Assembly: GCA_965208325.1 (NCBI GenBank)
Contig: OZ242326.1
Span: forward strand, 544,001 to 608,000
DNA from: Candidatus Poribacteria bacterium
Lineage (GTDB): Bacteria; Poribacteria; WGA-4E; PCPOR2b
Direction of reading: 5' to 3'
DNA length: 64,000 nucleotides
Below the pieces are notes generated by a model, which was given only the letters and a program-made list of their open reading frames with translations, searched no databases and was not told the origin of the DNA. Positions 36,796 through 51,581 of this stretch are shown in pieces. Position numbers and translations under genes: made by a program. The stretch's first letter is position 1, and each line of letters starts with the position of its first letter.

Positions 36796-37581
36796 CTACG
36801 AATGCGTTGAATTCGTTGTACTCGTTCTATGTTCAAAGTGTGTTTGTAGAGCGACGCTGCTAGACAAGATATGTTGAGTCATTGCTTGCTGTGCCTCTTC
36901 AGCATCCCTGTTTTGGAGCGTTAGGAGAATTTTCTGGTGCTCTCGAACCGACAAAATTGCGCGTCTTTCCGCTTTAGGAATTGGGGGTTCGGCTAGACTC
37001 CCTTTAATCCACGTTTGCAGGTAATTGCGTGTCATGTTTAGTAGGTTATAAAGTATCGAATTCTGTGTGGCTTGAGCAACCGTAAGGTGGAACTGCACAT
37101 CGAATCCTAAATATTTCTCGGGCTGCTGAATTGATGCTTCCATTCCCTTAAGCGTTAGCTCGATTTCGTCTATGTTCTCGGACGAAGCCCTTTGTGCAGC
37201 TAGAAATGCGGTTTGGGATTCCAACATCAGCCGAGTTTCAATCAAATCTTGGATTTTTTTTCGGTCGAGCAACAAACTCCACTGCAGGGCTTTTTCTAAA
37301 TACCGCTCGTTGTCGTTGGAGACAAAAGTGCCGTCACCAACTCGTCCGTCTAGTATTCCCATTACGGTAAGAGAACGCAGCGCTTCTCTTAACGAACTGC
37401 GCCCCACTCCAAATTGTCTACATAGCGCACGTTCAGAGGGAAGCCGGTCACCGGGTTTAAGCACATCTCTCGAAATCAGGTCGACAATTTGAGATACAAT
37501 TTCATCGCTAAGAGACGTACGAGCAATAGGACGCATCTCTTCCATGGCTGAGTTTATCGTGTTATGGTGTCTCATATTCAT
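36796..37581 (-). CDS. FadR-subfamily GntR transcriptional regulator
   Basis: LKPGDRLPSER.L...FGVGRSSLREAL, G.GTFV and an FCD domain (ETR..LE, D.QFH..V..A..N, EH..I). Confidence 0.92.
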   Translation of the reverse strand: MNMRHHNTINSAMEEMRPIARTSLSDEIVSQIVDLISRDVLKPGDRLPSERALCRQFGVGRSSLREALRSLTVMGILDGRVGDGTFVSNDNERYLEKALQWSLLLDRKKIQDLIETRLMLESQTAFLAAQRASSENIDEIELTLKGMEASIQQPEKYLGFDVQFHLTVAQATQNSILYNLLNMTRNYLQTWIKGSLAEPPIPKAERRAILSVREHQKILLTLQNRDAEEAQQAMTQHILSSSVALQTHFEHRTSTTNSTHS

Positions 37582-37662
37582 TCACACTGCCTCGTGTTTT
37601 CCATTTAACAATTCAATAATACCGTGCATGCAACCATAGTCAAATTGCACGAAAAAATTTGC

Positions 37663-37717
37663 TTTACAATTCTATGATTTTGCGATAAAATAACTAAAGG
37701 TCAGACCATCAGTTATT
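37663..37717 (+). promoter_or_regulatory. Promoter and FadR-type operator of the methyltransferase operon
   Basis: TTTACA(37663-68)-17 nt-TAAAAT(37686-91) overlaps the palindrome AATAACT-aaa-GGTC-a-GACC-atc-AGTTATT (37689-37717). The core GGTCAGACC matches the FadR/PdhR/LldR GGT-N3-ACC motif. Confidence 0.75.
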
Positions 37718-37808
37718 ATGCTTCTAACTTTCTCTGTTGTCAAGTAAATTACATTGTGAATGAACAGCCGAGAATGCGATTAAATCATTACCCGAGAGGA
37801 TTTAAACC

Positions 37809-38444
37809 ATGGGTGAGACGATCGATATTGGAAGGCGGATTGAATTGGTTCCGATGGATTCCCATTTTCAAGACATTACTATTGGCTTGTACAGCCAGGA
37901 ACAGGATGAGGGTCCCGCGTATTTAATTCATACATATAGTCGCCTGGACGGCACCGAGCAGCGCATTGCATTTGTGCGAAGGGCGATGAAAATTTTGGGA
38001 GGCTTGGAATGTACTCTTGATGGGTTGCTACGGTTTCCTTGTAAGGCAAAACATGAACTTGCTTGTAAACGCATTTTTCTGGAAGCATGCAAGCTCAACC
38101 CGGACAAGCCGATCACGCCGCGCCCTCTAAATACTCTCGACAAGAAGTCCGGTTTTACTATCACGGTTCTCAGTCTCGGAAACGGGGTTTATCAAATCAC
38201 GGCCGATGGCGAGGGGCGTCACAGAGCAAAGCGCATATCGGCTATTGGCGGAGGTTTAATTAAACTCGGGCAGATGGATGAAACAGGTGAAGATGCAGAT
38301 CGAGTGGCTTTTTCTTGTGGACACGTCCACGATGCCATGGTTGGACTATTACTGGTTCGTGCGCCGAATGTACGCGCCGTAATGCGGGAACAGCAGGCGG
38401 TTGCATCACGAGGGACGCTGTCAGCACCCAGCCAACAGGAATAG
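37809..38444 (+). CDS. Hypothetical protein with an internal two-fold repeat (F-x-C-x3-H)
   Basis: GAGGA RBS; first gene of the operon. Repeats end in LRFPCKAKH and VAFSCGHVH. Confidence 0.75.
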   Translation: MGETIDIGRRIELVPMDSHFQDITIGLYSQEQDEGPAYLIHTYSRLDGTEQRIAFVRRAMKILGGLECTLDGLLRFPCKAKHELACKRIFLEACKLNPDKPITPRPLNTLDKKSGFTITVLSLGNGVYQITADGEGRHRAKRISAIGGGLIKLGQMDETGEDADRVAFSCGHVHDAMVGLLLVRAPNVRAVMREQQAVASRGTLSAPSQQE

Positions 38445-38493
38445 TCTGAACGCAAGTAATGACTAGTCCTTTTTACGTTAGGAGAAAAACGAG

Positions 38494-39549
38494 ATGCAAA
38501 CTCAATCAATGACGAGTCGCCAACGTGTCCTTGCAGCGTTGCAAAGAGCACCGGTGGATCGGACGCCCATTTGCAATCCGACATCTGTGGCCACGGTGGA
38601 ATTGATGGACTTGGTAGATGCGCCGTTCCCTGAGGCAAACCGGCAGCCGGACCTGATGGCACGGCTAGCCGCGACTGGTTATACTGAGTTAGGATTCGAC
38701 ACGATTATGCCGGTTTTCACTATTATTCAAGAGTCTTCCGCACTCGGTTGCAAGATTCAATGGGAACAAAAGGATAACTGGCCCACTGTGAAAATGCGAG
38801 AACCGATTTGGGAAGACGTTGAGGACATCAAAATTCCGCCCAATCTCATAACTCACCAAGATACTCGCTGCGTGACCGATGCGATCCAAATCCTCAAAAA
38901 GGAGTACGGCGAAGAAGTCGCTGTGATCGGCAAGACGATGGGACCCTGGTCGCTCGGATACCACTGTTTCGGGGTCGAGCCTTTTCTGCTGTTGTCCTTA
39001 GACGATCCGGAAAAAACGAAACTCGCGCTGGATAAGATGAAAGAAATCACGATAGCGTTTGGGTTAGCACAGATTGAAGCCGGGGCGGATGCGCTAACCT
39101 TGCCCGATCACGCAACTGGGGATTTGGTCAGCGGCGAGTATTATCAGCGGTACTTGCGGGATCTTCACATTGAGTTTGCCGAACGCCTTCCAATCCCGCT
39201 AATTCTACATATTTGCGGGCGCACGGTCGACCGTATGGAGTACATCGCACAAACTGGTTTCGCAGCTTTCCATTACGACTCCAAGAATGCCCCGGATGAG
39301 TCCATGGCAGTGATGCAGAAGCGAATTGCCCTAGTCGGGAATATCAACAATCCCGAAACGTTGTTTGCAAAAGGCCCTGAGGAAGTGCGCCAGGAAGTCT
39401 ACAAAAATCTTGATGCAGGTGTCGAACTTGTAGGTCCTGAATGTGCGATTCCGCTGCAAACTTCGATTGAAAACCTAAAAGAGATTCCCGCGGCCGTCAA
39501 TGATTGGCACCGGCAAAATGCGAGTTTGATTCAAGAAGAATATATTTGA
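38494..39549 (+). CDS. MtaA/CmuA-family (UroD-fold) corrinoid methyltransferase
   Basis: MTSRQRVLAAL....VDR.P, ESSALGC, GPWSL, Zn ligands LHICG and GPECAIP, and LVGNI motifs. Confidence 0.88.
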   Translation: MQTQSMTSRQRVLAALQRAPVDRTPICNPTSVATVELMDLVDAPFPEANRQPDLMARLAATGYTELGFDTIMPVFTIIQESSALGCKIQWEQKDNWPTVKMREPIWEDVEDIKIPPNLITHQDTRCVTDAIQILKKEYGEEVAVIGKTMGPWSLGYHCFGVEPFLLLSLDDPEKTKLALDKMKEITIAFGLAQIEAGADALTLPDHATGDLVSGEYYQRYLRDLHIEFAERLPIPLILHICGRTVDRMEYIAQTGFAAFHYDSKNAPDESMAVMQKRIALVGNINNPETLFAKGPEEVRQEVYKNLDAGVELVGPECAIPLQTSIENLKEIPAAVNDWHRQNASLIQEEYI

Positions 39550-39567
39550 AACTTAAAGAGACATACT

Positions 39568-40332
39568 ATGCCTGAAATTACCGACATCGTAAATGATTTC
39601 ATTAGGGATGAAATCGAAGAATACATTGAACGTGCCGATGAACGTACGCGCACTATCAATATATTGGCGCAAGCAAGTCCCGCGATGCAAGCAATTGCTG
39701 CCGCACTTGTTGACGGGGACCACCATACCGTGGATCGATTAACAAAAGAGGCTTTGCACGCGGGTACGGAGGCTTTGGAGATTATGGACGATGGCCTCAT
39801 CGCTGGGATGGGAATTGTTGGAATAAAGTTTCGAGAAAATTTCATTTTCGTCCCGGAAGTCCTCGCTTGTGCGCGCGCAATGAAGGCCGGCATGGCGTAT
39901 ATCGAACCGATACTGTCCGCGTCGGGGATTGAGCCAATTGGTACCGTTATCATGGGGACAGTGAAAGGAGATCTGCACGATATTGGCAAAAATTTATGCA
40001 TCATGATGCTTCGCGGCGCAGGATTCGTTGTACACGATTTGGGCGTCGATACTTCAGACGACGAGTTTATTGATGCCGTGGAAGAACACGGTGCGCCGGT
40101 GCTAGGAATGTCGGCACTCTTGACTACGACGATGCCCAACATGGGTAAGACGATTGAAGCTTTCATTGATGAAGATCTCCGCGAAGATGTCAAAATCATG
40201 GTCGGTGGGGCGCCCGTAACCCAAGAGTTTGCCGATGATATGGGTGCGGACGGATATGGGAAGGACGCACTTGCGTGCGTGGCGCTTGCCAAGCAACTGT
40301 TTGTAGAACTTAGAGACGAAGGAAGGCTATAA
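39568..40332 (+). CDS. Corrinoid (cobalamin-binding) protein
   Basis: Cap domain (GLIAGM..VG..F....FVPEV...ARAM), GTVKGDLHDIGKN, MSALLTTTM and VGGAPV motifs. Confidence 0.93.
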   Translation: MPEITDIVNDFIRDEIEEYIERADERTRTINILAQASPAMQAIAAALVDGDHHTVDRLTKEALHAGTEALEIMDDGLIAGMGIVGIKFRENFIFVPEVLACARAMKAGMAYIEPILSASGIEPIGTVIMGTVKGDLHDIGKNLCIMMLRGAGFVVHDLGVDTSDDEFIDAVEEHGAPVLGMSALLTTTMPNMGKTIEAFIDEDLREDVKIMVGGAPVTQEFADDMGADGYGKDALACVALAKQLFVELRDEGRL

Positions 40333-40520
40333 ACGGTTTTACACCAGTCTTGCTTTATGCTCCCACCGTGCTATTCTGATGAAGTAACTAAGCAAAAATT
40401 AGCCAAACAAGTGAATTAGCACATTGTTGGCCTTAATCGCTAATCGGCGAAGTTCTTGAGCTGATATTTTGTCACTGCCAAGATTCACGTCTGTGTGTTG
40501 AATTTGCGGAAAGGTTTAAC

Positions 40521-42434
40521 ATGCCGAGGATTTCCAAGGAAGAATATCGGAAACGGTTGGACAAAATTACGGAATTGTTCGCTAGCATCGTGGGACACGC
40601 CGATGAACAAGCCGCATATAGGTGTCCCTACAAAAACCGGTTCGATCAATGTACTGCCAAATTCGGCTGTAGGAATCAGCGTAAACCTCGTGAAAAAGGG
40701 AAGTCATTGATGTGCGGCGGCGACGATAAGCTTGACTATCGCAGCGCATGGGATACTGAGGCTGGTGTAGGTGTTTTTATTGAGAGTGAAGGCGATTATG
40801 GAAAGGGCACTATAACGCATGACGGCACAAAGCGTAACCTTACAGCCGGGAAAACAGTTTTCGACTATGCTGACGAATTGGCGGTACAGGTGCCGACCTC
40901 CTGTTTTCGTACGGGGCAATGTCACGAGTGTATCGTTGAGATTAAGCAAGGCATACAGGCATTGCGTCCACGCAACGAAGCTGAGTCGTTTCTTCGGGAA
41001 AATTACCGTCTTGCTTGTCAGGCAGTTGTCGAAGACCCCGATACCGATGTACAGTTTTCGCCGCTGCGCAGAAAGCCTAGGATTCTCACACTTACCCAAG
41101 AAAAGCCCGCTGAACTCGAACCGATGGTCACCCGCCAGGGCGATACAGTCTACTACGATAGGGAAGCTATCGACACATACCGCGGGCACCTTTACGGTCT
41201 TGCCATAGATTTGGGTACCACAACCGTCGTAATGGATTTGGTAAATCTTGAGACCGGCGAAAGCGTGAGCGTCAACTCCTTTGAAAATCCGCAGCGGTTC
41301 GGCGGCAGCGATGTGATGCATCGTATTTCATACGACGGTGTGTATGCCGGTGAGTTACGCAAGGCGGTTACCAATGCCCTGAATCACGAAATCGCCGAGA
41401 TGGGAAAACGTTTGGGCTTCGTCCGTCAGGAAATCTACGAGATTGTTGTTGCGGGCAACTCGACTATGCGCGATATTTTCTTCAAGTTGGACGTGCAGAG
41501 CATCGGCCAAAAACCCTATAAGTCCGTGATTGAACACGCGTACATCGCAGAGGAACTCAACACGACTTCGCTTGTTGAGAAAACGCGGCGTTTAGGGCTT
41601 CGGGCGAATCCAAGAGCCCGAGTTTATGGGTTGCCGTTGATTGCAAGCCATGTGGGTGCCGATGTTGCAGCCGATTTGGTCGCCATTGACATGGTATCGC
41701 AGAAAAAAGCGGTCATGCTGGTAGATGTTGGTACTAACACTGAAGTCGTTGTGGGACACGCGGGACGGCTGATAACAGCGTCTTGTCCGGCAGGTCCCGC
41801 GTTTGAAGGCAGCGGAATTAAATTCGGTATGCCAGGTTACGAAGGAGCCATCGAGTCAATTCGGTGGGGTGACGGCCAAATCAATTATGACACTATTGGC
41901 GGTATTGCACCACAAGGCATCTGTGGATCGGGATTAATCGACCTGTTGGCAGAACTTCGCCGCCATAATCAGATGACAGCAAAAGGTGTTTTTGCTGATA
42001 GAAAACAGTATGACATGACCGTTGTGCCCGAACATGGCATTACGCTTTCCCGGGAAGACATTAGCAACTTGGCTCAAGCCAAGGCAGCCAATTACTGCGG
42101 ACAATTGATAGTCTTGCGAGAGTTCGGTATCGACCCATCGGAAATCAATCGGCTTTATTTAGCCGGTGGATTCGCAAATTATGTGGATGTTCACAACGCC
42201 GTCGAAATCGGTTTTCTTGCGCCAGTGCGCGGCGATAGAATCGTCAAAGTTGGAAACGCAGCGGTGCAGGGCGCGCGGGAAGTTCTCCTATCACGGAAAA
42301 AGCGTGACAATATTGAGCATCTGGTTAAAGGAATTGAACATGTCGAACTAGAGACAACGCCCGATTTCTTTGAGGTGTTCGTGGAAGGGTGCCAGTTTAA
42401 ACCCATGCCGAAGGAGTTAGCTGACATATCATGA
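40521..42434 (+). CDS. ASKHA-domain reductive activator of corrinoid proteins (RACo/RamA-like) with a 2Fe-2S domain
   Basis: SC...G.C.EC...RLACQ ferredoxin, AIDLGTTT, NPQ..GG.DV..RI, GNSTM, VDVGTN.E, AGPAFEG, GICGSG and LAGGF motifs. Confidence 0.92.
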   Translation: MPRISKEEYRKRLDKITELFASIVGHADEQAAYRCPYKNRFDQCTAKFGCRNQRKPREKGKSLMCGGDDKLDYRSAWDTEAGVGVFIESEGDYGKGTITHDGTKRNLTAGKTVFDYADELAVQVPTSCFRTGQCHECIVEIKQGIQALRPRNEAESFLRENYRLACQAVVEDPDTDVQFSPLRRKPRILTLTQEKPAELEPMVTRQGDTVYYDREAIDTYRGHLYGLAIDLGTTTVVMDLVNLETGESVSVNSFENPQRFGGSDVMHRISYDGVYAGELRKAVTNALNHEIAEMGKRLGFVRQEIYEIVVAGNSTMRDIFFKLDVQSIGQKPYKSVIEHAYIAEELNTTSLVEKTRRLGLRANPRARVYGLPLIASHVGADVAADLVAIDMVSQKKAVMLVDVGTNTEVVVGHAGRLITASCPAGPAFEGSGIKFGMPGYEGAIESIRWGDGQINYDTIGGIAPQGICGSGLIDLLAELRRHNQMTAKGVFADRKQYDMTVVPEHGITLSREDISNLAQAKAANYCGQLIVLREFGIDPSEINRLYLAGGFANYVDVHNAVEIGFLAPVRGDRIVKVGNAAVQGAREVLLSRKKRDNIEHLVKGIEHVELETTPDFFEVFVEGCQFKPMPKELADIS

Positions 42435-42514
42435 CTTTAGAAACGTGTCGGGCAGCTCACATACCAGATAAGAAGCCTACAGGAAAGCTGACCACATATC
42501 TTTAGGAGACGAAG

Positions 42515-43552
42515 ATGAAGCTTAACGGTCTAGAATTCATAATTATTGGTGAAAATGTGCACACTACTCGTGTGGTGCGTCGAAAAGGGAAGCTCGTTAC
42601 GAATAACGCTGACGGTGTCGAATCCATTCGCTATCTAGATAGAAACAAAAAACGCCGGTATCTCGTCATCCCCGATAGCATCAGGAAAACTCAGGACTAC
42701 GAGGAAGGGCGCATTAAACACGTCAAGATCGCCATTCAGGCAGCCATGACCGAAAAAAATCCTCATGCCGGTGAAGGGCTCGAGTACCTGATGCGACTGG
42801 TGCAACGTCAGTTAGACGCCGGAGCCGATTACTTAGACTTGAATGTAGACGAGGTCTCATTGCATCTTGAGGAACAAAAGGATGCCATGAGATGGCTTGT
42901 GCAGGCCGTGCAGGAGATGTATTCTATTCCATTGTCGGTGGATTCATCCAATACGGAAATCATACAAGCGGGACTTGAGGCCGCTGATGGCAAAGTTGTC
43001 CAAACTATGCTAAATTCAGCAGCACCTGAACGCCTTGATACCCTAGATCTTGCGAAACAGTACCATACGAGGGTCATTGTTCAAGCAGCGAGCGTAAACG
43101 GTATGCCAGAAAACGCCGAAGAACGGGTGTCCAATGCCTCTTTCATGGTGGAAAAAGCCTTAGATAAAGGGATTGCGATTCATGATATTTTCATTGACCC
43201 CGTAATCTTTCCAATCTCAGTCGACAGCCAATACGGCAATCACTGCTTCGATGCGATACGGCAAATTCGCGAGAAATATGGTCCCAATCTCCATATTAGC
43301 GGCGGTTTCAGCAACGCCTCATTCGGTTTACCATGCCGCCGCCTCATTAACGATGTATTTATGATGTTAGCCATTGAAGCCGGTGCGGACAGTGGGATCA
43401 TTGATCCTGTCACGAGTGACCCTCGAAAGATTATGGCAATGGATCGACAGTCAAAGCCCTACAAACTCGCTGAAGATATGCTTCTGGGTAGGGACGAATA
43501 TTGCGCTAATTTTATAAAAGCATTTCGAAAAGGGGAATTGGAGCTCCGCTAA
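42515..43552 (+). CDS. Pterin-binding methyltransferase (methyl-THF:corrinoid, AcsE/MetH pterin-domain-like)
   Basis: IIGEN, Q..AGADYLDLNV, PLSVDS, NSA, IFIDP, GGFSN.SFGLP.R and G.DS.IIDP motifs, with an N-terminal insertion. Confidence 0.85.
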   Translation: MKLNGLEFIIIGENVHTTRVVRRKGKLVTNNADGVESIRYLDRNKKRRYLVIPDSIRKTQDYEEGRIKHVKIAIQAAMTEKNPHAGEGLEYLMRLVQRQLDAGADYLDLNVDEVSLHLEEQKDAMRWLVQAVQEMYSIPLSVDSSNTEIIQAGLEAADGKVVQTMLNSAAPERLDTLDLAKQYHTRVIVQAASVNGMPENAEERVSNASFMVEKALDKGIAIHDIFIDPVIFPISVDSQYGNHCFDAIRQIREKYGPNLHISGGFSNASFGLPCRRLINDVFMMLAIEAGADSGIIDPVTSDPRKIMAMDRQSKPYKLAEDMLLGRDEYCANFIKAFRKGELELR

Positions 43553-43555
43553 ACC

Positions 43556-43834
43556 GTGGCTGAATATCAAATATTGTACTGGAAGGGCATTCCAGCCCAA
43601 GTGAGAGTTCTTGAGGGAAAGAAAACAATCTCGCGAGAGATGCCCGCTCGTTTCCAAGCTGACATCGATCGAATCGCAATGCAAGAAGGTTTGTACGGAA
43701 GTGACAATTATCTTGACCAATGGGAATGGACCGAGAAACGCCAGCGGATCGGCGATGCCAAACTAGTATTAGATTCGATCTTACGTGAACTCGAAACCGA
43801 TTACGACGATAAATTTAGAAAACCGAAAAAATAA
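43556..43834 (+). CDS. Small PF13769 (virulence factor)-like protein of corrinoid methyltransferase loci
   Basis: ILYWKGIPAQV, RFQ..IDR.AM..G....D.YL..W motif; GTG start. Confidence 0.78.
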   Translation: MAEYQILYWKGIPAQVRVLEGKKTISREMPARFQADIDRIAMQEGLYGSDNYLDQWEWTEKRQRIGDAKLVLDSILRELETDYDDKFRKPKK

Positions 43835-43842
43835 TTTCAATA

Positions 43843-44889
43843 ATGCCCAATTTCTCACCTGAGACACTTCGTCATATCGGGTACCAGCTTTTTGAAGCCG
43901 CGGGCTGTAAACCCGAAGATGCGCACGTTGTGGTTAATCACCTGATCGAATCCAATCTCTTTGGTCATGATTCTCACGGCGCTATTCGGTTTGGCGAATA
44001 CCTGCGCGCTATTCGAGAAGGTCGGTTCCAACCTCGTGAAACACCTGAGACTGTAAGCGAAAACCCATGTACCGCGGTCGTTGACGCCCGCGGCGCACTA
44101 GGGCAAATCGGCGCGTCCTATGCGATGAACTTGGCAATTGAAAAGGCTGGCCGCCACGGTGTTGGCACGGTGACCTTACGGAATACAAGCCATGTTGGGC
44201 GCGTGGGCGCCTATCCTTTAATGGCCGCTCAGACAGAGATGATTGGTCTTGCCTTTGTCAATGCGGGCCGGCTCGGTTACCAAATTGTTCCCTTTGGAGG
44301 CATTGATGGCCGCCTAAGTACCAACCCAATTGCATTTGCTGCCCCGCGCCGGGAAGCCCCGCCTATTTTTGTTGATATGACTACCTCGGTATCTGCCGAA
44401 GGTAAAATTCGGGTTGCTATCAACCAGGGAAAACAGGTTCCCGAGGGCTGGATCATTGATGCTCAAGGCAATCCCACCACGGATCCGAAAAATTTTAAAG
44501 GTCCTCCGCCCGGAGCCATCCTTCCACTAGGCGGAGTAGTAGCACACAAGGGCTACGGTTTGAGTATTGTTGTAGAACTCTTGGGCGGTGCCTTGAGCGG
44601 TCAAGGTTGTGCCGCTGGTGAACGTTCAATGGCAAGCAATGGTGTGCTATTTACCGTATACCACATTGAGCATTTCACCACTCTTGATGCTTTCTATAAC
44701 GAAGTGGAATTACTGCTTAATCACATCAAATCGAGCCGACTAGCCCCCGGGTTTGTGGAAATCTTAGCGCCTGGTGAACCTGAATTTCGTAACGCTCAAC
44801 GGAAAATGGTCGAAGGAATTGATATTGATGAGACAACTTGGAATAATATCTGCGAAGAAGCTCTCGCCTTCGGGATTAATCTAGAATAA
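43843..44889 (+). CDS. Ldh_2 family (malate/L-lactate/ureidoglycolate-type) oxidoreductase
   Basis: GHDSHG, H.GR.G.Y, TNPIAF..P, DM.TS...EGK, GW..D..G.PTTDP, HKGYGL and PGEPE motifs. Confidence 0.9.
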   Translation: MPNFSPETLRHIGYQLFEAAGCKPEDAHVVVNHLIESNLFGHDSHGAIRFGEYLRAIREGRFQPRETPETVSENPCTAVVDARGALGQIGASYAMNLAIEKAGRHGVGTVTLRNTSHVGRVGAYPLMAAQTEMIGLAFVNAGRLGYQIVPFGGIDGRLSTNPIAFAAPRREAPPIFVDMTTSVSAEGKIRVAINQGKQVPEGWIIDAQGNPTTDPKNFKGPPPGAILPLGGVVAHKGYGLSIVVELLGGALSGQGCAAGERSMASNGVLFTVYHIEHFTTLDAFYNEVELLLNHIKSSRLAPGFVEILAPGEPEFRNAQRKMVEGIDIDETTWNNICEEALAFGINLE

Positions 44890-44941
44890 TGGTGTACCAA
44901 CGCAATGTAATTGTCGAAATTTTAAAATTAGAGCACTTCAA

Positions 44942-45943
44942 ATGAGGACGTTTCTTGAGAGGTTTGCCGACCCAAGCCCTATGATTTACGATGGCGGATT
45001 TGGCTCAGAACTGTTTGCCAGAAGGATTGAGCTGACGAATAGCGAACTTGCGAACGAACTGCATGCAGACGCGGTAATGAATATTCATTCTGATTATATT
45101 GAAGCAGGCGTTAATGCCCTAGCATCAAACACTTTTGTAGCTTCAAGGCTGCATCTTGAAATGGCAGGAATAGAGGGGCATGTGGCGGATAAAACCGCCC
45201 AGTTGGCGGTAGAACATGCCAAGGTAGCAGTTGAAAAAGGTGGCAAGGAAATATATATCGCAGGATCGTTTGGACCTTCGCCCGGCGCAATTGACGCCGA
45301 TAGCGGCGATATTGATTTTGGAATCCCGATCGCTGTTGTCAGGGATGTTTATGAAAGGCTAGCGAACGTTCTGGCAGATGGCGGCGTTGGCTTTTTCGGT
45401 ATAGAAAACATGTTTTCCGCGAGGGAAGCCGCAATAGCAGTCGATGCTACCAGAAAATACGGGCTTCCTATCGCCGTAAACTTGACATATAAGCGCACGA
45501 AGGACCGCGCTAGCGGCAACGTCGTTTACCGTACAGATTGGGGGCATTCGACGGCGAAATTAATAGGCATATTGTCAAGCGGGGAGTTCTCCAATGGTGA
45601 TAATCTGTTGGATTATGTCCACATATTAGGTCTAAATTGTGGTGCGGAAGTCAAGCATGAGCAACACACTGGGATGCCCTATGCGATAAATGGAATACAA
45701 CAGTTGAAAGAAGCATTGGCGATGAATAATGTTCAATCGAAACGGTTGATGGCTTATCCAAATGCAGGTATGGCACGCCTGGACCAGAATCAGCGTACAT
45801 ATAATTCGCAATCCGCATAAGAAATGGTGATTTTCTTACCAACACTTCTCCTAGCAGGTGCATACTTTGTCGGTGGATGCTGCGGCTCTGGATTTTCCCA
45901 CATTTAAGCCTTTCGTGAAATTATCTCCCCGATAAACAATTGA
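44942..45943 (+). pseudogene. Homocysteine S-methyltransferase (MetH N-terminal-like) interrupted by two in-frame TAA codons
   Basis: DGGFGSEL, H..YI.AG....SNTF, IAGS.GP, GLNC and AYPNAG precede TAA at 45818-20. The same frame continues EMVIFLPTLLLAGAYFVGGCCGSGFSHI*(45905-07)AFREII..., with TGA at 45941-43. Confidence 0.85.
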
Positions 45944-45992
45944 CGTAATACCGCTCCAATCCAGATAGCCCCGCGGTACGTAGCAGTTTTAA

Positions 45993-46021
45993 TTGACAAA
46001 CTCCCAATAGAGTCGTATACT
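45993..46021 (+). promoter_or_regulatory. Near-consensus sigma70 promoter upstream of the 845-aa FBPase gene
   Basis: TTGACA(45993-98)-17 nt-TATACT(46016-21). Confidence 0.7.
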
Positions 46022-46216
46022 AACTATTTATAAAAATGCTGTTGCCCGCCTTCTTTAGGCTTTTGTTTTTCCCGTCTTAATACATGTCTCTAGTGAAAAC
46101 TTGCCTAACTTCAGTATGTATAGTTTAGTCTAATAAGCGGCGATCCGAATTCATCCGCGGTTTTGAAAACGGTAAGATGTATAAGGGGCGGTGACAGCAA
46201 CTTTGGAGGTGAATGA

Positions 46217-48754
46217 ATGTCCGATTCCTTTGATGAATCTAGAGAAAATCGTCCACACGGACAATCTAATGTCACCATTGTTACTCTCGATTTGGGGCGT
46301 TGGATTCATGGTGAATTGCCCAACCAGATTGTAGAATTGGCACGCAATGAACTTCAAGGCGGACAATTAGAGAACCGGTTGCGTGGTGCGTGGGTACGAG
46401 GATTTGCGGGGGATTTGCATCTGCACATAACAACCTACAACGAAGATTTCATCGTAAACGGCGCGTATACGAATCATCCTATTGAGGCCGCGGTGCGAGC
46501 CGCTGTCAATGCGGGCCTCATTGCGCTGGAAGAAGCCGTTAAAATGCAACGCTGTACTGACGCGGCAAAGGAAGTCCTGACACTTGATACCGAACAGCAA
46601 GCCGAGGCGTTGCGGCCGTATTACCTAAACTTCCCCTTTACCGAGAGAGGCGCCGAACCCATATTTGCTGCGAAGGCTATCAACGGAAGCTGGGGATTCT
46701 TCAACCGCGCCGTTTTTAATCTGTTTTTCAACCCGGATAAAGGTTCCGGGAGGCGCATTGAGGGAAATGAATTTTTGGGTGTAGTTGAATCAATTGCGGA
46801 TCTCAAGAACGGCGTGGATAATGTACGAACCTATGAGTTTGGCCCTGGAAACCTTAACGAAATGGTCGCATTAATTGCCGACGCCGATGAATGGCGACTC
46901 AGCCGCGTATACGCAGTCCGCGGTAAGTTCGGTGAAAGTGAACTGCGTGGAGAACCCGCCCTTGTGGTCGAAGGTGCCAAAAACCCAGTTTTGGTAGGTC
47001 GCTCTCAGTCAGGTCTTCCCGCTGTCGGTGAATTCACTCAAGCCGTTGGAGAATTCTGCTTTGGACCAGGAGGCGGCGCAGGCAAATACCGGGTTGGACT
47101 CATGCCCGTTAATTTTGAAGAGGCACGCTGCAATTCAATTCCTCAAGGTACAGCGAAAATAGTCGCCTATGCCTATCAGTCCTACGACTACGGAAAGATT
47201 CCGAGTGATTCGGATGTGGTTGACGTTTTTGACCAAAACCGCCCTGAGACTAGGCGTTTACAGCGAGATGCAGCAGACCTAATCGGAAAAATGGTCAGTC
47301 ACGGGGAGTTTGAGCCTTACGTGAACCCAATGGCCGCAGAAGATACCGCCTCACGCGAGGCGCAACGTTTGGTGACACGCTTTGAATCAATTCCTGAAAC
47401 TTCTGACCTTTTGTTAGAAGCCGCAAACAAAAAGGCTATCTTCACACTATCTGATATTAAAGCCGACAGCGGCGGCAAAGTTGGACATACCACGCCCCCT
47501 CACATGTTCCGATATGTTGCGGAGGCTAGTCTGCAAGAAGGGAAAGAAGCAGGGCTAATCTTCGAATCGTCCGAAATCATTGAAGTTGGGGACGACGGAC
47601 ATCTGTTGATGAGTCATAACCGCGGGGCAGATAGCAATGAAATTCATCTTTTCGCTTACCGTACTTTTTTCCGGCAAGTGTGGGTAGCCGAGGTATTGGG
47701 ACAAAAGTGGTATGGTTTGGGGCAGGATTTGGTCGGAGAAACGACGGCTGGACATCCTACCGAAGAATTGGCAAACCTAAACGATGCTTTTCTCAAATTA
47801 TTGCCCAAATTCCTGCCTGCCGCGGAACGTGCACACATAGGTCAGCTTGAAAACGCGTATAGAGTGTGGAAGACTGGTGAAGGCAAAGGGCATAACGTAC
47901 TTCACGTTTTTTCAGGTAACATCTCAGGACAAGGTCCCGGCTTTGCGGAACTCCCGTTGTTTCGCCCTGGTAGAATTGGGCTGCTGGCGATTGACAAAAC
48001 AGGGCCCTCAGCCTTTAATTTGCCGATATGGTGGAGCTTAAATCAAGCATCAGCATCGGGCGCCCTCACTTCCTATCTCAACCAGACCGGGTCAGTAGGC
48101 TGCGTATTGGAAATTTGGGATGTGGAGCATCATCGTCGTATTTTCCTAGACTTCAAGAGTGAAGCAGAAATTGCGCAGCATTTACTTGGCGCGGTCGAAA
48201 GGTTTAACATCAAGCGAATTTGGAGCTGTCGAGCGAATAACTGGAACGCAGAAAGCCCATCGGACGGACTGGGTGAGGTGCTTTTGGCGGCCTCAACTGA
48301 GAAGCTCGCGGTCATTACCGGCGGAGAATACCGAGGGAAAGATGACCCTGTTTTGCTTGCAGTGGAGCCTTTGGCGGACGCGCTCAACCTATTCATGCGC
48401 GATTGCTTTTACATGACCCAGGGAGATGGCCGAGGTTCTCATTTCATGTTCCCGACGCCGCTGCCCTTCCAAGATGCTATAGCGACGGTCAACAGCCGCG
48501 CCGTGGCGGTGTCCGCTTGGGTTAGCATTAATCCTGACGGTCAGATCTGTGGGTTGCAGGACGTTTTTTCGGATGCAATCTACGAAAACGCACGGGATCG
48601 AGCTTACCGGTTAAATAAAGCAATCTGGGATGCTCAAGGCGGCAACTTTATTCCCGTCGGTGTAGGTTCAGCCAAGGTAGAACAATCATATCCTCTGGCA
48701 AAAATGCTGGACCGCATCACTGCCTCAAATTCCGAGTTTGCTTCCAAGCACTAG
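46217..48754 (+). CDS. Tandem-duplicated fructose-1,6-bisphosphate aldolase/phosphatase (class V FBPase) family protein
   Basis: The C-half has IKADSGG.VGH, VGDD..L.M.H, YGLGQDL, FSGN..G.GPG.AE, DKT.P.AFNLP, STEKL....YRGKDDPV and RGSH. The N-half has FTER..EPI, RSQSGLPAVGE, LMPV and HGEFEP. GGAGGTG RBS. Confidence 0.82.
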   Translation: MSDSFDESRENRPHGQSNVTIVTLDLGRWIHGELPNQIVELARNELQGGQLENRLRGAWVRGFAGDLHLHITTYNEDFIVNGAYTNHPIEAAVRAAVNAGLIALEEAVKMQRCTDAAKEVLTLDTEQQAEALRPYYLNFPFTERGAEPIFAAKAINGSWGFFNRAVFNLFFNPDKGSGRRIEGNEFLGVVESIADLKNGVDNVRTYEFGPGNLNEMVALIADADEWRLSRVYAVRGKFGESELRGEPALVVEGAKNPVLVGRSQSGLPAVGEFTQAVGEFCFGPGGGAGKYRVGLMPVNFEEARCNSIPQGTAKIVAYAYQSYDYGKIPSDSDVVDVFDQNRPETRRLQRDAADLIGKMVSHGEFEPYVNPMAAEDTASREAQRLVTRFESIPETSDLLLEAANKKAIFTLSDIKADSGGKVGHTTPPHMFRYVAEASLQEGKEAGLIFESSEIIEVGDDGHLLMSHNRGADSNEIHLFAYRTFFRQVWVAEVLGQKWYGLGQDLVGETTAGHPTEELANLNDAFLKLLPKFLPAAERAHIGQLENAYRVWKTGEGKGHNVLHVFSGNISGQGPGFAELPLFRPGRIGLLAIDKTGPSAFNLPIWWSLNQASASGALTSYLNQTGSVGCVLEIWDVEHHRRIFLDFKSEAEIAQHLLGAVERFNIKRIWSCRANNWNAESPSDGLGEVLLAASTEKLAVITGGEYRGKDDPVLLAVEPLADALNLFMRDCFYMTQGDGRGSHFMFPTPLPFQDAIATVNSRAVAVSAWVSINPDGQICGLQDVFSDAIYENARDRAYRLNKAIWDAQGGNFIPVGVGSAKVEQSYPLAKMLDRITASNSEFASKH

Positions 48755-49134
48755 CACGAGTTTCAGGAAAGAAAAAACAACTCGAAACTACCAGCCCACG
48801 CCCCTTTGGTTTTAACCCTGCCAAGTTTGCACAAACTGCGAATTCAAAAACGTTAACTGTGTAGCAAAGACATTCATTGCAAAGGGTTTTGGAATAGAAT
48901 GATTGTGCGTGCTGACCTACCAATGGAGGACGTTTTAAATAGATATGGTATTGTGAAACCAAATCTATACGCCGCACAGTTTCGCATTGGGTTTACAAAT
49001 CTCTTCAACTCCAAATGTGAATATGCCGTGTTGGAATAGCGTTTGAAACATTGCTGACCAAACCCATGCTAACTGATGCATGTTCCACGCAAGCGTTGTC
49101 CTTCGGGGACAGAAAAAATATTTGAACAAAATTA

Positions 49135-49177
49135 TTGACAAAGCGAAAGTCGTCTGTTATACTTAACGGCGTTAAGT
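49135..49177 (+). promoter_or_regulatory. Extended -10 promoter with overlapping TetR operator
   Basis: TTGACA(49135-40)-17 nt-TATACT(49158-63) with TGn. Perfect inverted repeat ACTTAACG-g-CGTTAAGT at 49161-49177. Confidence 0.8.
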
Positions 49178-49206
49178 TAAATTACGATGTAAATTATGGT
49201 TATGTA

Positions 49207-49812
49207 ATGGGCGTTAAAGAACGCAGAACAAGGGAAAAAGAGCAGTTACGGCGTCAGATTCTTGCTGCCGCGCGAGAGTTGTTCGTCAATGAAGGCTACG
49301 AAAACGTCTCTATGCGAAAGATTGCCGATAAGATTGAGTATTCGCCGACGATGATTTACCTCTACTTCAATGGCAAAGCAGATCTTTTGGATTCCGTTTG
49401 CCAAGAAACCCTCCTGAACCTATTGAATACCCTTGAGCTGCTGAAAAGAGATAAAAGCGACCCCATTGAGAACCTGAGAAAAAGTGGTAAAGCCTATGTC
49501 GAATTCGGTTTAAAGTACCCGCAAGATTACAAGCTGACATTTGTCGTCCGTCCTCAATACCAGGAGGGTTTAGGTCTGCCAGAAGGATCGGTTGGCGAAA
49601 GAGTGTTTAATTACCTGAGTGCAATGGTCTCCGAATGTGTTCGACAGAAGACCTTCCGCCAAGTGGATGTCGAAATCACCGGACAAGCGCTGTGGTCAGC
49701 AGTTCACGGAGTTACCATGCTCCTGATTGATTTCCCCGATTTCCCTTGGGCAGCGAAAGATAAATTGATTGATACGGTGATACACACGATGATCAGAGGT
49801 TTGAAGGCGTAG
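49207..49812 (+). CDS. TetR/AcrR regulator with WHG-type C-terminal domain
   Basis: MGVKERR.REKE, ILAAARELF...GYE.VSMRKIA..IEYSP...YLYF..K and LWSAVHG motifs. Confidence 0.92.
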   Translation: MGVKERRTREKEQLRRQILAAARELFVNEGYENVSMRKIADKIEYSPTMIYLYFNGKADLLDSVCQETLLNLLNTLELLKRDKSDPIENLRKSGKAYVEFGLKYPQDYKLTFVVRPQYQEGLGLPEGSVGERVFNYLSAMVSECVRQKTFRQVDVEITGQALWSAVHGVTMLLIDFPDFPWAAKDKLIDTVIHTMIRGLKA

Positions 49813-49892: not shown

Positions 49893-51581
49893 ATGAAAAA
49901 TACCGAAAGGAAAACAAAAATTAATAAGTATATCCAATCCTACAAACACTGTCTTTATGCAATTCTTATCTCGCCAAGCAATCAGGCGGACCGCTACCGA
50001 CGAAGTCTGCTTTCCATAGTGGTTCTTGGAGGGTTCTTATCGGGCTGCACGCCACTGTTCGGCAAAGAGGTTAATCCGATACCCCTTGCCTCCGAGGAAT
50101 TTTCTCTCAAGCATTACGAAATCGTCATTGGCACAGCAAAACACCAAACCGTTTTGACAGGATTTCTTCTTGGCGGTATTACCGCGGAACTTGTGGTGGT
50201 GAGCATCGACACGGCGCATAATCGTCGGTTATTCCTGTACAAATTTGACAACGAAAGTTGGGCGATAACGCTCGACGCATCGCTGCGACCGGAAGTGCTG
50301 TTCGTCGACGTGGTTAACATCAAGGGACGCGACCGATTGATTACTTATGAGCACGGTCGCATTAATTGGTTCGAGCCCGAAACATCAATCGAGCACTTGC
50401 TGGTTGAGGTTAGTGCGAAAATCCCGCCTCCCAAAATTGAAGTCCCGCATGTTGATATTACGCGGGACCTCAACGGTGATGATCGAGACGATATAGTCCT
50501 GCCGGATGCCGACGGCTTCTGGGTGTTTATCCAGTTGAACGATGGTGCATTCGCCGATCCGGTAAAGATTGGTCCCTCGTTTAAGATGGATGAAATTTAC
50601 ACGGGCGACGGGTACCGGTTCATCCCGTGGAATGAAAGTCGCGTCCACGAGGTGGACTATAACCGAGATGGGCGCATTGACCTCGTCTTCTGGCGTGATG
50701 ACCACTTTGTAGTTCATCATCAAGATGAGAATGGGCTGTTTTCTCCAGATACGGAGACCTTCTGTACGGAGGTGGGATTCGATTCGGACGACCTTTCATC
50801 GCTTGTCGCGCCCGAGGGGGTGCGTGGCAGGCGTTTTGATCACGGTGCCCCTGGAGTCATGACGGGAAGAGTGTTGCACGAATTGACCGATATGAACCAT
50901 GACGGTGTCGCCGACCTGGCAGTATTTTCTTTGCAGGCGGGGAATGGCCGCCTATTCGGTCAGACATCCAAGTTGTGGGGTATGCGCTCAACTTACGAGG
51001 TGCACTTTGGGGTGCCGGCCCCGGGCGCAACTGAATTCGGATTAGAGGTTGACACCATGATTCGGGCAGACGGAATCCCGTTCGAGATAGCTGCGCGCGA
51101 CTTCGACCACGATGGTCATGTCGATGTGATGTTCACGGTCATTAATCCGGGTATCTTCAAAATCATCGGTATGTTGGTAAGGGGGATGGCCACGGATTCC
51201 ACGTTGCTAGATCTTAATCTCTACCGCTTGAAAGACAACTCGTACTCCGACAAGCCCAACACTACTCGCAAAATCAAAGCGTATACTCCCGGTGATTCAG
51301 GGGAGAAAGCCATGCACTTTCCGTCGTTGCTCTGTGGGGACGTATCCGGCGACGGACACTCGGACCTTTTGGTACAGAATGGACGGAAAGAACTGTACGT
51401 CTTCATCGGCGAGCGCGGCCCAAATATGTTCGTTCGGAAGCCTAAAAAGCTAGCAGTCAACATGCCGTACGAGGAATACACCCAGTTGATAGATCTTAAC
51501 GGCGACGGCTTGTATGATGTCCTCATGCATCACCCGTCTTTCGCAGAACCGCATCGGGTGACGATGCTTATTGCTCAATGA
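49893..51581 (+). CDS. FG-GAP/VCBS repeat lipoprotein (beta-propeller)
   Basis: Lipobox FLSGC and six D-x-[NDS]-x-D-[GD]-x2-D motifs (DLNGDDRDD, DYNRDGRID, DMNHDGVAD, DFDHDGHVD, DVSGDGHSD, DLNGDGLYD). The true start may lie downstream. Confidence 0.8.
   Translation: MKNTERKTKINKYIQSYKHCLYAILISPSNQADRYRRSLLSIVVLGGFLSGCTPLFGKEVNPIPLASEEFSLKHYEIVIGTAKHQTVLTGFLLGGITAELVVVSIDTAHNRRLFLYKFDNESWAITLDASLRPEVLFVDVVNIKGRDRLITYEHGRINWFEPETSIEHLLVEVSAKIPPPKIEVPHVDITRDLNGDDRDDIVLPDADGFWVFIQLNDGAFADPVKIGPSFKMDEIYTGDGYRFIPWNESRVHEVDYNRDGRIDLVFWRDDHFVVHHQDENGLFSPDTETFCTEVGFDSDDLSSLVAPEGVRGRRFDHGAPGVMTGRVLHELTDMNHDGVADLAVFSLQAGNGRLFGQTSKLWGMRSTYEVHFGVPAPGATEFGLEVDTMIRADGIPFEIAARDFDHDGHVDVMFTVINPGIFKIIGMLVRGMATDSTLLDLNLYRLKDNSYSDKPNTTRKIKAYTPGDSGEKAMHFPSLLCGDVSGDGHSDLLVQNGRKELYVFIGERGPNMFVRKPKKLAVNMPYEEYTQLIDLNGDGLYDVLMHHPSFAEPHRVTMLIAQ

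Follow-up and report, generated by a model that had tools for sequence, protein, structure and literature searches.

The sequence analyzed here, which we call the window, is a stretch of 64,000 nucleotides from a Candidatus Poribacteria bacterium (assembly GCA_965208325.1, contig OZ242326.1, positions 544,001-608,000). Its forward strand carries, at 46217..48754, an open reading frame (ORF) of 845 amino acids, which the ORF call, Pfam and independent contigs together identify as a homolog of class V fructose-1,6-bisphosphatase (FBPase), the aldolase/phosphatase of fructose 1,6-bisphosphate (FBP), present as two copies within one chain. The C-terminal copy has a complete catalytic set, and the N-terminal copy is without that set and keeps two canonical segments that the C-terminal copy has lost. 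A ribosome-binding site (GGAGG, 46205..46209, + strand, read from the sequence) lies 7 nt 5' of the ATG. Farther upstream, a promoter-like TTGACA-17-TATACT on the + strand (45993..46021) agrees with the consensus at 11 of 12 positions; it is a consensus match only, and the four promoter-like sites seen in the region compare with 3.9 expected in shuffled sequence. An Rfam search of 45700-49300 found no RNA elements, and a scan for terminators 3' of the gene yielded nothing useful. The protein has no signal peptide, as judged by eye from its N-terminus, and we infer that it is cytoplasmic.

The fused ORF could be read as an artifact, produced either by misassembly or by read-through across two neighboring genes. 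We give this reading almost no credence. Unbroken single contigs from three independent sponge-metagenome studies cover 46000-48900 with no gap or indels inside the ORF, an ORF of 845-867 amino acids occurs in all four genomes of the genus, and a search for proteins of near length returned 235 homologs. The best 120 of these 235 are 747-875 amino acids long, at 58-93% identity, and all belong to PF01950; 101 of the 120, of about 840 amino acids, make up the family alignment to which all counts out of 101 refer. In that alignment the linker between the copies (residues ~390-409; 47385..47443, + strand) has a fixed length, the segment from F389 to T410 measuring 21-22 residues in 99 of the proteins, and this too disfavors an artifact.

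PF01950 (FBPase_3) is the sole Pfam family in the 845-residue protein, which it matches in three stretches. The whole protein scores 241 bits against a gathering cut-off of 25, and each half passes that cut-off alone, the N half (residues 1-409) with 63 bits (E 3e-17) and the C half with 183 bits, so that the two class V FBPase-like copies first seen in this ORF are both recognizable. By Pfam, hhalign and alignment, the C-type copy spans residues 409-843 (47441..48745, + strand), with the catalytic set present. The N-type copy spans residues 16-396 (46262..47404, + strand); by profile it has the full-length fold of the aldolase/phosphatase, with the catalytic residues lost. A profile of 13 N-half sequences aligned with one of 20 canonical single-domain sequences at an hhalign probability of 99.7 (E 6.5e-27) over 358 columns, placing N residues 16-396 on canonical residues 4-369. 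The same N-half profile matched Sulfolobus tokodaii ST0318 (3r1m) over chain residues 4-364 (E 7.8e-19), so at profile level the N half does have the class V FBPase fold that the original prediction gave it. The C copy aligned with canonical enzymes at probability 100 (E 1.6e-59). Direct comparison of the N and C copies gave weak similarity (BLASTP E 0.14; hhalign E 0.0044 over 340 columns), and the claim of homology for the N copy therefore rests on the profiles. The solved relatives are those of T. neutrophilus (3t2b-g) and S. tokodaii (1umg/3r1m), and ESM Atlas searches returned only PF01950 clusters.

We located the equivalents of catalytic residues, given here in T. neutrophilus numbering, through alignments to 3t2b, with the Y229F entry 3t2g as the anchor. 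All features that follow are on the + strand. In the C copy, KADSGGKVGH (47459..47488) contains D417 and H424, equivalent to D11 and H18; G458-D459-D460 (47588..47596) contains the equivalents of D52 and D53; YGLGQD (47711..47728) provides Y499, Q503 and D504 for Y91, Q95 and D96; and D593-K594 (47993..47998) stands for D132 and K133, every one of these residues being present in 101/101 proteins. YRGKDD (residues 705-710; 48329..48346) contains Y705, equivalent to Y229, K708, equivalent to the Schiff-base Lys232, and D709/D710, equivalent to D233/D234. R739-G-S741-H742 (48431..48442) corresponds to R266, S268 and H269 and is found in 100-101 of 101, the range that covers each of the catalytic residues of this copy. 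The set of Mg ligands (D11, H18, D52, D53, Q95, D132, D233 and D234) is complete in the C copy and incomplete in the N copy. Likewise, the C copy has both the Schiff-base Lys and its Tyr (K708 and Y705, 101/101), and the N copy has neither, reading A254 and V250 at these positions.

Two canonical segments are missing from the C copy. After GKDDPVLL, a deletion of 4-5 residues takes out R-x-Q-x-G, and the ER..EP site reads FRPGR-I. Two insertions are also specific to this copy. The larger, of ~57 amino acids (residues 507-563; 47735..47905), lies between GQDL and FSGN, with the segment from D504 to F565 measuring 62 residues in 92 of 101 proteins, and it has no counterpart in P0190, a single-domain homolog of 458 amino acids. 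The second, of ~12 amino acids, lies near residues 672-683.

The N copy shows the reverse. It retains ERGAEP (E143-P148; 46643..46660), in which E143-R144..E147-P148 corresponds to the canonical E120-R121..E124-P125 that the C copy lacks, and it retains RSQSGLPAVGE (R262-E272; 47000..47032), which aligns to R240-E250 of 3t2b and is deleted in the C copy. HGEFEP is kept as well. At catalytic positions it carries substitutions: G32 at H18, L67 at D53, I155-N156 for DK, V250 at Y229, A254-K255-N256 for KDD, and AGKY for RGSH. Neither copy, then, combines ER..EP and R-x-Q-x-G-L-P-A-x-G-E with the catalytic residues in one domain. The reciprocal motif loss at the center of the original prediction holds in these alignments to canonical enzymes, and the coordinates it gave for RSQSGLPAVGE and YRGKDD were correct. 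Its list of N-copy losses stands; to this we add the correction that D66, equivalent to the first Asp of GDD, is still present in 101/101 and is the sole invariant position of the Mg set in that copy.

Two-copy proteins of ~840 amino acids occur in Poribacteria, Acidobacteriota, Latescibacterota, Planctomycetota and Dehalococcoidia. In the family alignment, Y.GKDD is found in the C copy of 101/101 proteins and RxQ after GKDD in 0/101. The N copy has ER..EP in 101/101 and RxQxGxP in 100/101 (the exception is P0136), and its E143, R144, P148, R262, Q264, S265, G266, A269 and G271 are each invariant. In single-domain enzymes both segments are strongly conserved: R121 and R240 are conserved in at least 88% of 16 representatives, and RxQHGLPAxGE appears in essentially all of 119 archaeal sequences. 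The N copy has further invariants, K175, R180, E182, N184 and D195, that are not conserved in canonical enzymes.

The pattern extends to much longer proteins. An exhaustive representative search returned 272 clusters, including proteins of 900-6393 amino acids in which PF01950 is the only Pfam family. Hidden Markov models of each copy type, applied to the proteins of at least 900 amino acids, found an N-type followed by a C-type copy in 56 of 57; in the exception, P0173, the C-type copy stands alone, and P0122 (3495 amino acids) holds two N-C units. Residues were counted in the 45 N-C units that passed thresholds. The C-type domains have D11, H18, D53, Q95, D96, D132 and K133 in 44/45, D52, K232, D233, D234 and S268 in 43/45 and H269 in 38/45, and R121, R240 and Q242 in 0/45 each. 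The N-type domains keep R144 (equivalent to R121) in 43-45 of 45, R262 (R240) in 41-42 and Q264 (Q242) in 44-45. Thus, the survey of homologs bears out the reciprocal pattern in 101 proteins of ~840 amino acids and in 45 units of long proteins. Only R144, N163 and Q264 are N-copy positions kept in 45/45 of these distant units, for which a ligand-contacting role fits better than a packing role. Most of the giant proteins start with a signal-peptide-like N-terminus, judged by eye, and their N-C units are flanked by long regions free of Pfam matches. We considered a eukaryotic origin for the long homologs and dropped it, as their N-termini are of the bacterial signal-peptide-like kind.

When 15 N copies, 15 C copies and 16 single-domain proteins were placed in one tree, each kind of copy came out as a clade of its own, with support 100 for N and 99 for C. 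The C clade nests among single-domain enzymes, beside P0190, and the N clade is separate and long-branched, with branches about twice the length of the C branches; the N and C subtrees are congruent. Single clades and congruent subtrees suggest that the fused unit arose once, and do not by themselves make N a recent duplicate of C. Of the duplication and fusion originally proposed, the two-copy chain with complementary loss survives, and a simple internal duplication is not shown by a tree in which C nests among single-domain enzymes. P0190, the closest single-domain relative of the C-type copy, keeps all motifs, including ERKAEP and RAQHGLPAAGE. P0190 and P0233 (798 amino acids) are both single-copy PF01950 proteins with signal-peptide-like N-termini, and P0233 has a 410-residue N-terminal region that matches neither the N-type nor the C-type model. 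N-type copies seldom stand alone: we found 35 matches of 220-700 amino acids, mostly fragments. Comparison with three Poribacteria orthologs gave dN/dS values of 0.12-0.21 in the N half and 0.06-0.09 in the C half; purifying selection acts on both.

The closest loci, at 82-96% identity, are on chromosomes of Candidatus Poribacteria metagenome-assembled genomes, and the sequencing runs that contain the window stretch are sponge metagenomes from 12 studies. Loci at 60-68% identity come from Acidobacteriota, Latescibacterota, one Dehalococcoidia bin and one Gemmataceae genome, and the Poribacteria clade of the protein is sister to the Acidobacteriota clade. In samples of each phylum, counted with the genomes that seeded the search included, the two-copy gene occurs in 4 of 151 genomes of the window's own phylum (all of one genus; canonical form, 0), 3 of 151 Acidobacteriota (canonical, 15), 2 of 121 Latescibacterota (canonical, 1) and 1 of 151 Planctomycetota (canonical, 6). 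In each sampled phylum the gene occurs rarely and patchily, a pattern of the kind that horizontal transfer produces. Within the window's family, class I FBPase is found in 15 of 20 genomes of the sister genus and in 0 of 4 of its own genus. The genus would most likely have gained the two-copy gene by horizontal transfer, replacing class I FBPase.

The gene content of the carriers bears on what the protein does. The window genome, a single contig that is 95.6% complete, has a single PF01950 locus, and profile searches of it found no PF00316, PF03320, PF06874 or PF01116, the families of class I, II and III FBPase and of class II aldolase. A search of it for PF00274 also gave no match; the control of that search found nothing in any genome either, and the search is hence uninformative. 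The only DhnA-type aldolase of the window genome (G000:C1:928168-929025; L018 1420-2277) scores as an LsrF-like thiolase (316 bits, cut-off 297) rather than as an FBP aldolase and adjoins a gene for a Zn-dependent dehydrogenase. The genome also has DeoC and one phosphofructokinase (PFK; G000:C1:1344483-1345682, L020 1240-2439) that falls below every subfamily cut-off. A recognizable FBP aldolase was not found in it, and PFK is present. Among the 11 carrier genomes checked (G000, G003, G007, G038, G151-G155, G239 and G286), none has class I (PF00316) or class II/GlpX (PF03320) FBPase, and the five checked further lack class II aldolase and have no PF01950 gene besides the two-copy ORF. Class I or class II FBPase is, by contrast, present in 92 of the 148 other Acidobacteriota genomes; the class I and class II tallies each include one genome flagged as unpublished (G178 and G300), on which nothing else claimed here depends. 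Canonical and two-copy forms occur together in 0 of 151 Acidobacteriota genomes, where their frequencies (15 and 3) predict 0.3 co-occurrences by chance.

Gene order adds to this picture. In 7 of 14 loci, the gene directly downstream of the two-copy gene, on its strand, encodes pyruvate phosphate dikinase (PPDK, ~912 amino acids); the seven are every one of the six Acidobacteriota loci plus an unclassified bin (L007-L011, L015 and L016), and the window genome has a PPDK homolog elsewhere. In all five of the Acidobacteriota/PPDK loci that we scanned, a KAS III-like protein and an AMP-binding enzyme are encoded upstream on the opposite strand, with an alpha/beta hydrolase gene between them in three (L008, L009 and L011). 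From gene content and neighborhood, the two-copy gene is probably the organism's gluconeogenic FBP aldolase/phosphatase, its activity being a prediction.

Because the C copy has lost exactly the segments that the N copy keeps, we propose a composite active site: the protein would be a single-chain pseudo-heterodimer of FBP aldolase/phosphatase, in which a catalytic C copy and an obligate, dead N partner form one site with a gluconeogenic role. We put this reading just short of an even chance. In such an enzyme, K708 of the C copy would form the Schiff base with dihydroxyacetone phosphate, with Y705 beside it, and D417, H424, D459, D460, Q503, D593, D709 and D710 would hold the Mg ions for hydrolysis of the 1-phosphate, the net reaction being conversion of triose phosphates to fructose 6-phosphate. 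The residues themselves are present, and we take their roles to be those known from work on the S. tokodaii and T. neutrophilus enzymes. The non-catalytic N copy would pack on the C copy as a neighboring subunit does in the canonical oligomer and would donate E143/R144 and R262/Q264/S265, completing the substrate pocket. In ST0318, the RxQ(H/S) segment reportedly acts on the site of the neighboring subunit. Loop donation from the N copy to the C-copy site fits the residue pattern, and the fixed N-then-C order and linker length count for an obligate partner. In the cell, the protein would serve as gluconeogenic FBPase and anabolic aldolase. A broader version of the proposal, to which we give somewhat less than an even chance, is that an obligate intramolecular heterodimer has spread horizontally as the sole gluconeogenic FBPase of mesophiles in at least five phyla and has also been recruited into exported megaproteins.

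Several observations weigh against the composite-site proposal, and the first of them favors another role for the N copy. R240/Q242 lie 8-10 residues after the Schiff-base Lys and could act on the site of their own subunit. If RxQ does act within its own subunit, the N copy is more likely a ligand-binding regulatory domain: the enzyme would be the same, the C copy would be self-sufficient, and the N copy would be a regulatory or scaffolding pseudoenzyme domain that keeps the phosphate-binding half of the old pocket (ER, N163 and RxQS) and binds an effector, such as a sugar phosphate, or fixes the oligomeric state. The N copy has indeed kept likely ligand-binding residues and lost the metal and Schiff-base residues, it has its own family-specific invariants (K175 to D195, listed above), and its RxQ is near its own Schiff-base loop in sequence and may act within its own copy. 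However, the segments lost from the C copy are the strictest two of the N copy across the 101 proteins and the 45 units, which a purely regulatory pocket does not predict, and these segments are near-invariant in canonical enzymes, so that the C copy should need a substitute for them. We consider a regulatory N copy unlikely, though it is a serious contender.

A broader measure of reciprocity gives the composite site only marginal help. Of 58 canonical positions with a conservation of 85% or more among the 16 single-domain representatives, 34 are kept by the C copy alone, 14 by both copies, six by the N copy alone (R144, E147, G178, R262, P268 and L385) and four by neither. The N copy thus retains 6/10 of the positions that C has lost versus 14/48 of those that C has kept (one-sided Fisher p 0.07). 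The loop Tyr near the C-terminus raises a separate difficulty. In ST0318, Tyr347 of this loop is required for both activities (PMC8740755). In the window protein the Glu of the canonical E-Y pair is matched by E822, and an invariant Y825 stands two residues beyond, an equivalence that is uncertain; the N copy has no equivalent of this Tyr.

Other points in the same direction concern substrate. The two-copy protein falls well under the cut-off of 520 bits for the NCBIfam equivalog NF041126 (whole protein 231, C half 175, N half 60), as do many diverse single-domain representatives, which score 322-522. The ~57-residue insertion adjoins active-site motifs. In Coxiella burnetii CinF, a single-domain homolog (39% identity), the fold is kept and FBPase activity is lost (PMC8740755), and by this precedent conserved motifs are no proof of substrate. 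On these grounds the C-copy chemistry might act on something else, for example a sugar bisphosphate other than FBP or, on the CinF model, a phosphoprotein, and the protein would not be a gluconeogenic FBPase. The distance from the equivalog cut-off, the insertion together with loss of the RxQ loop, the CinF precedent and the odd location, for gluconeogenesis, of N-C units inside signal-peptide-like megaproteins all speak for such a change. Set against them are the absence of class I or II FBPase from the 11 carrier genomes, where the two-copy ORF is the only PF01950 gene wherever this was checked, the PPDK pairing in Acidobacteriota, the finding that canonical and two-copy forms never occur together in that phylum's 151 genomes, and the invariance of all canonical catalytic residues. 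The phyletic and neighborhood evidence argues against a substrate change here, which we regard as distinctly improbable.

The physiological part of the composite-site proposal has weaknesses of its own. The PFK of the window genome could be reversible. Furthermore, class I, II and V FBPase are all missing from 129 of the 151 genomes sampled in the window's phylum, which makes the lack of a further FBPase a less telling argument there. For those 129 genomes, a reversible pyrophosphate-dependent PFK is one possibility for the FBPase step.

Upstream of the two-copy gene, at 36796-45820, a GntR/FCD regulator gene is followed on the + strand by a corrinoid-type cluster that encodes a URO-D-like methyltransferase, a B12-binding corrinoid protein, a RACo reductive activator with a 2Fe-2S domain, a pterin-binding (MeTr-like) protein, Ldh_2 and a homocysteine S-methyltransferase-like protein. 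By its predicted products, this cluster looks like a corrinoid-dependent methyl-transfer or demethylation system. Three Poribacteria relatives show synteny over its downstream part, which runs from the RACo gene through the methyltransferase-like gene; the genes farther upstream fall outside those loci. We rejected an operon that would join the two-copy gene to these corrinoid/methyltransferase genes, as the synteny is confined to Poribacteria. Two Latescibacterota loci, L012 (9364-10419) and L017 (9412-10419), have a homolog of the window's pterin-binding protein (42515-43552) at 44% identity, ~0.9 kb downstream of their two-copy gene, so that the pair lies near each other in two phyla. On the other side of the gene in the window, 49135-49812 encodes a TetR regulator with its own TTGACA-17-TATACT site at 49135-49163, followed at 49893-51581 by a 562-residue FG-GAP repeat protein whose N-terminal stretch is hydrophobic.

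Discussion of FBP aldolase/phosphatase has cast it as an ancestral gluconeogenic enzyme, adapted to heat, of archaea and deep-branching bacteria. The family described here is a second, fused form, conserved from Poribacteria to Planctomycetota, that appears to be the only FBPase of its mesophilic carriers. To call it a new architecture, as the original prediction did, is too strong: hundreds of such proteins are already in public databases, under the automatic label "fructose 1,6-bisphosphatase". Full-text searches, which do not reach subscription papers and supplements, found no literature on a two-copy class V FBPase, and the text available to us of a 2025 FEMS pathway review (PMC12525153) contains neither 'fusion' nor 'duplicat'. 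Annotation as a plain FBPase hides the dead copy, and pathway surveys would count the protein as a canonical enzyme. If the copies do share one active site, they would be a clear-cut natural example of duplicates that degenerate reciprocally, and the stand-alone two-copy protein is predicted to be a tractable, soluble model for the N-C unit of the giant proteins.

Among known systems, the canonical FBP aldolase/phosphatase (PF01950, NF041126; ST0318 and the T. neutrophilus enzyme) is the nearest. The fold of both copies is like it by profile, the C copy keeps its metal and Schiff-base residues, and the presumed role as sole gluconeogenic FBPase is alike. However, the canonical enzyme is one domain of ~360-390 amino acids that forms a homo-oligomer, and here 845 amino acids hold two differentiated copies; the canonical catalytic domain has ER..EP and RxQxGLPAxGE, and here the catalytic copy is without both and carries the insertions of 57 and ~12 amino acids. 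The canonical form comes from thermophiles, whereas the two-copy form comes from mesophilic, sponge-associated and soil bacteria. The megaproteins of 900-6393 amino acids share the N-type to C-type unit with its reciprocal residues in 45 units, and differ in embedding it; the window protein is the unit alone, without signal peptide or flanking modules. CinF is, like the window protein, a PF01950-fold protein whose function is not readable from similarity alone, but it is a single-domain secreted effector without FBPase activity, whereas the window protein keeps all catalytic residues and is distributed among genomes as a housekeeping FBPase would be. The idea that duplicates of an enzyme with sites at its subunit interfaces undergo reciprocal loss has parallels in pairs such as trypanosomatid AdoMetDC/prozyme and deoxyhypusine synthase, in which a dead paralog completes the interface site of a catalytic one. 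Those partners are separate polypeptides; here they are fused in fixed order, with the interface site as the premise of the proposed mechanism.

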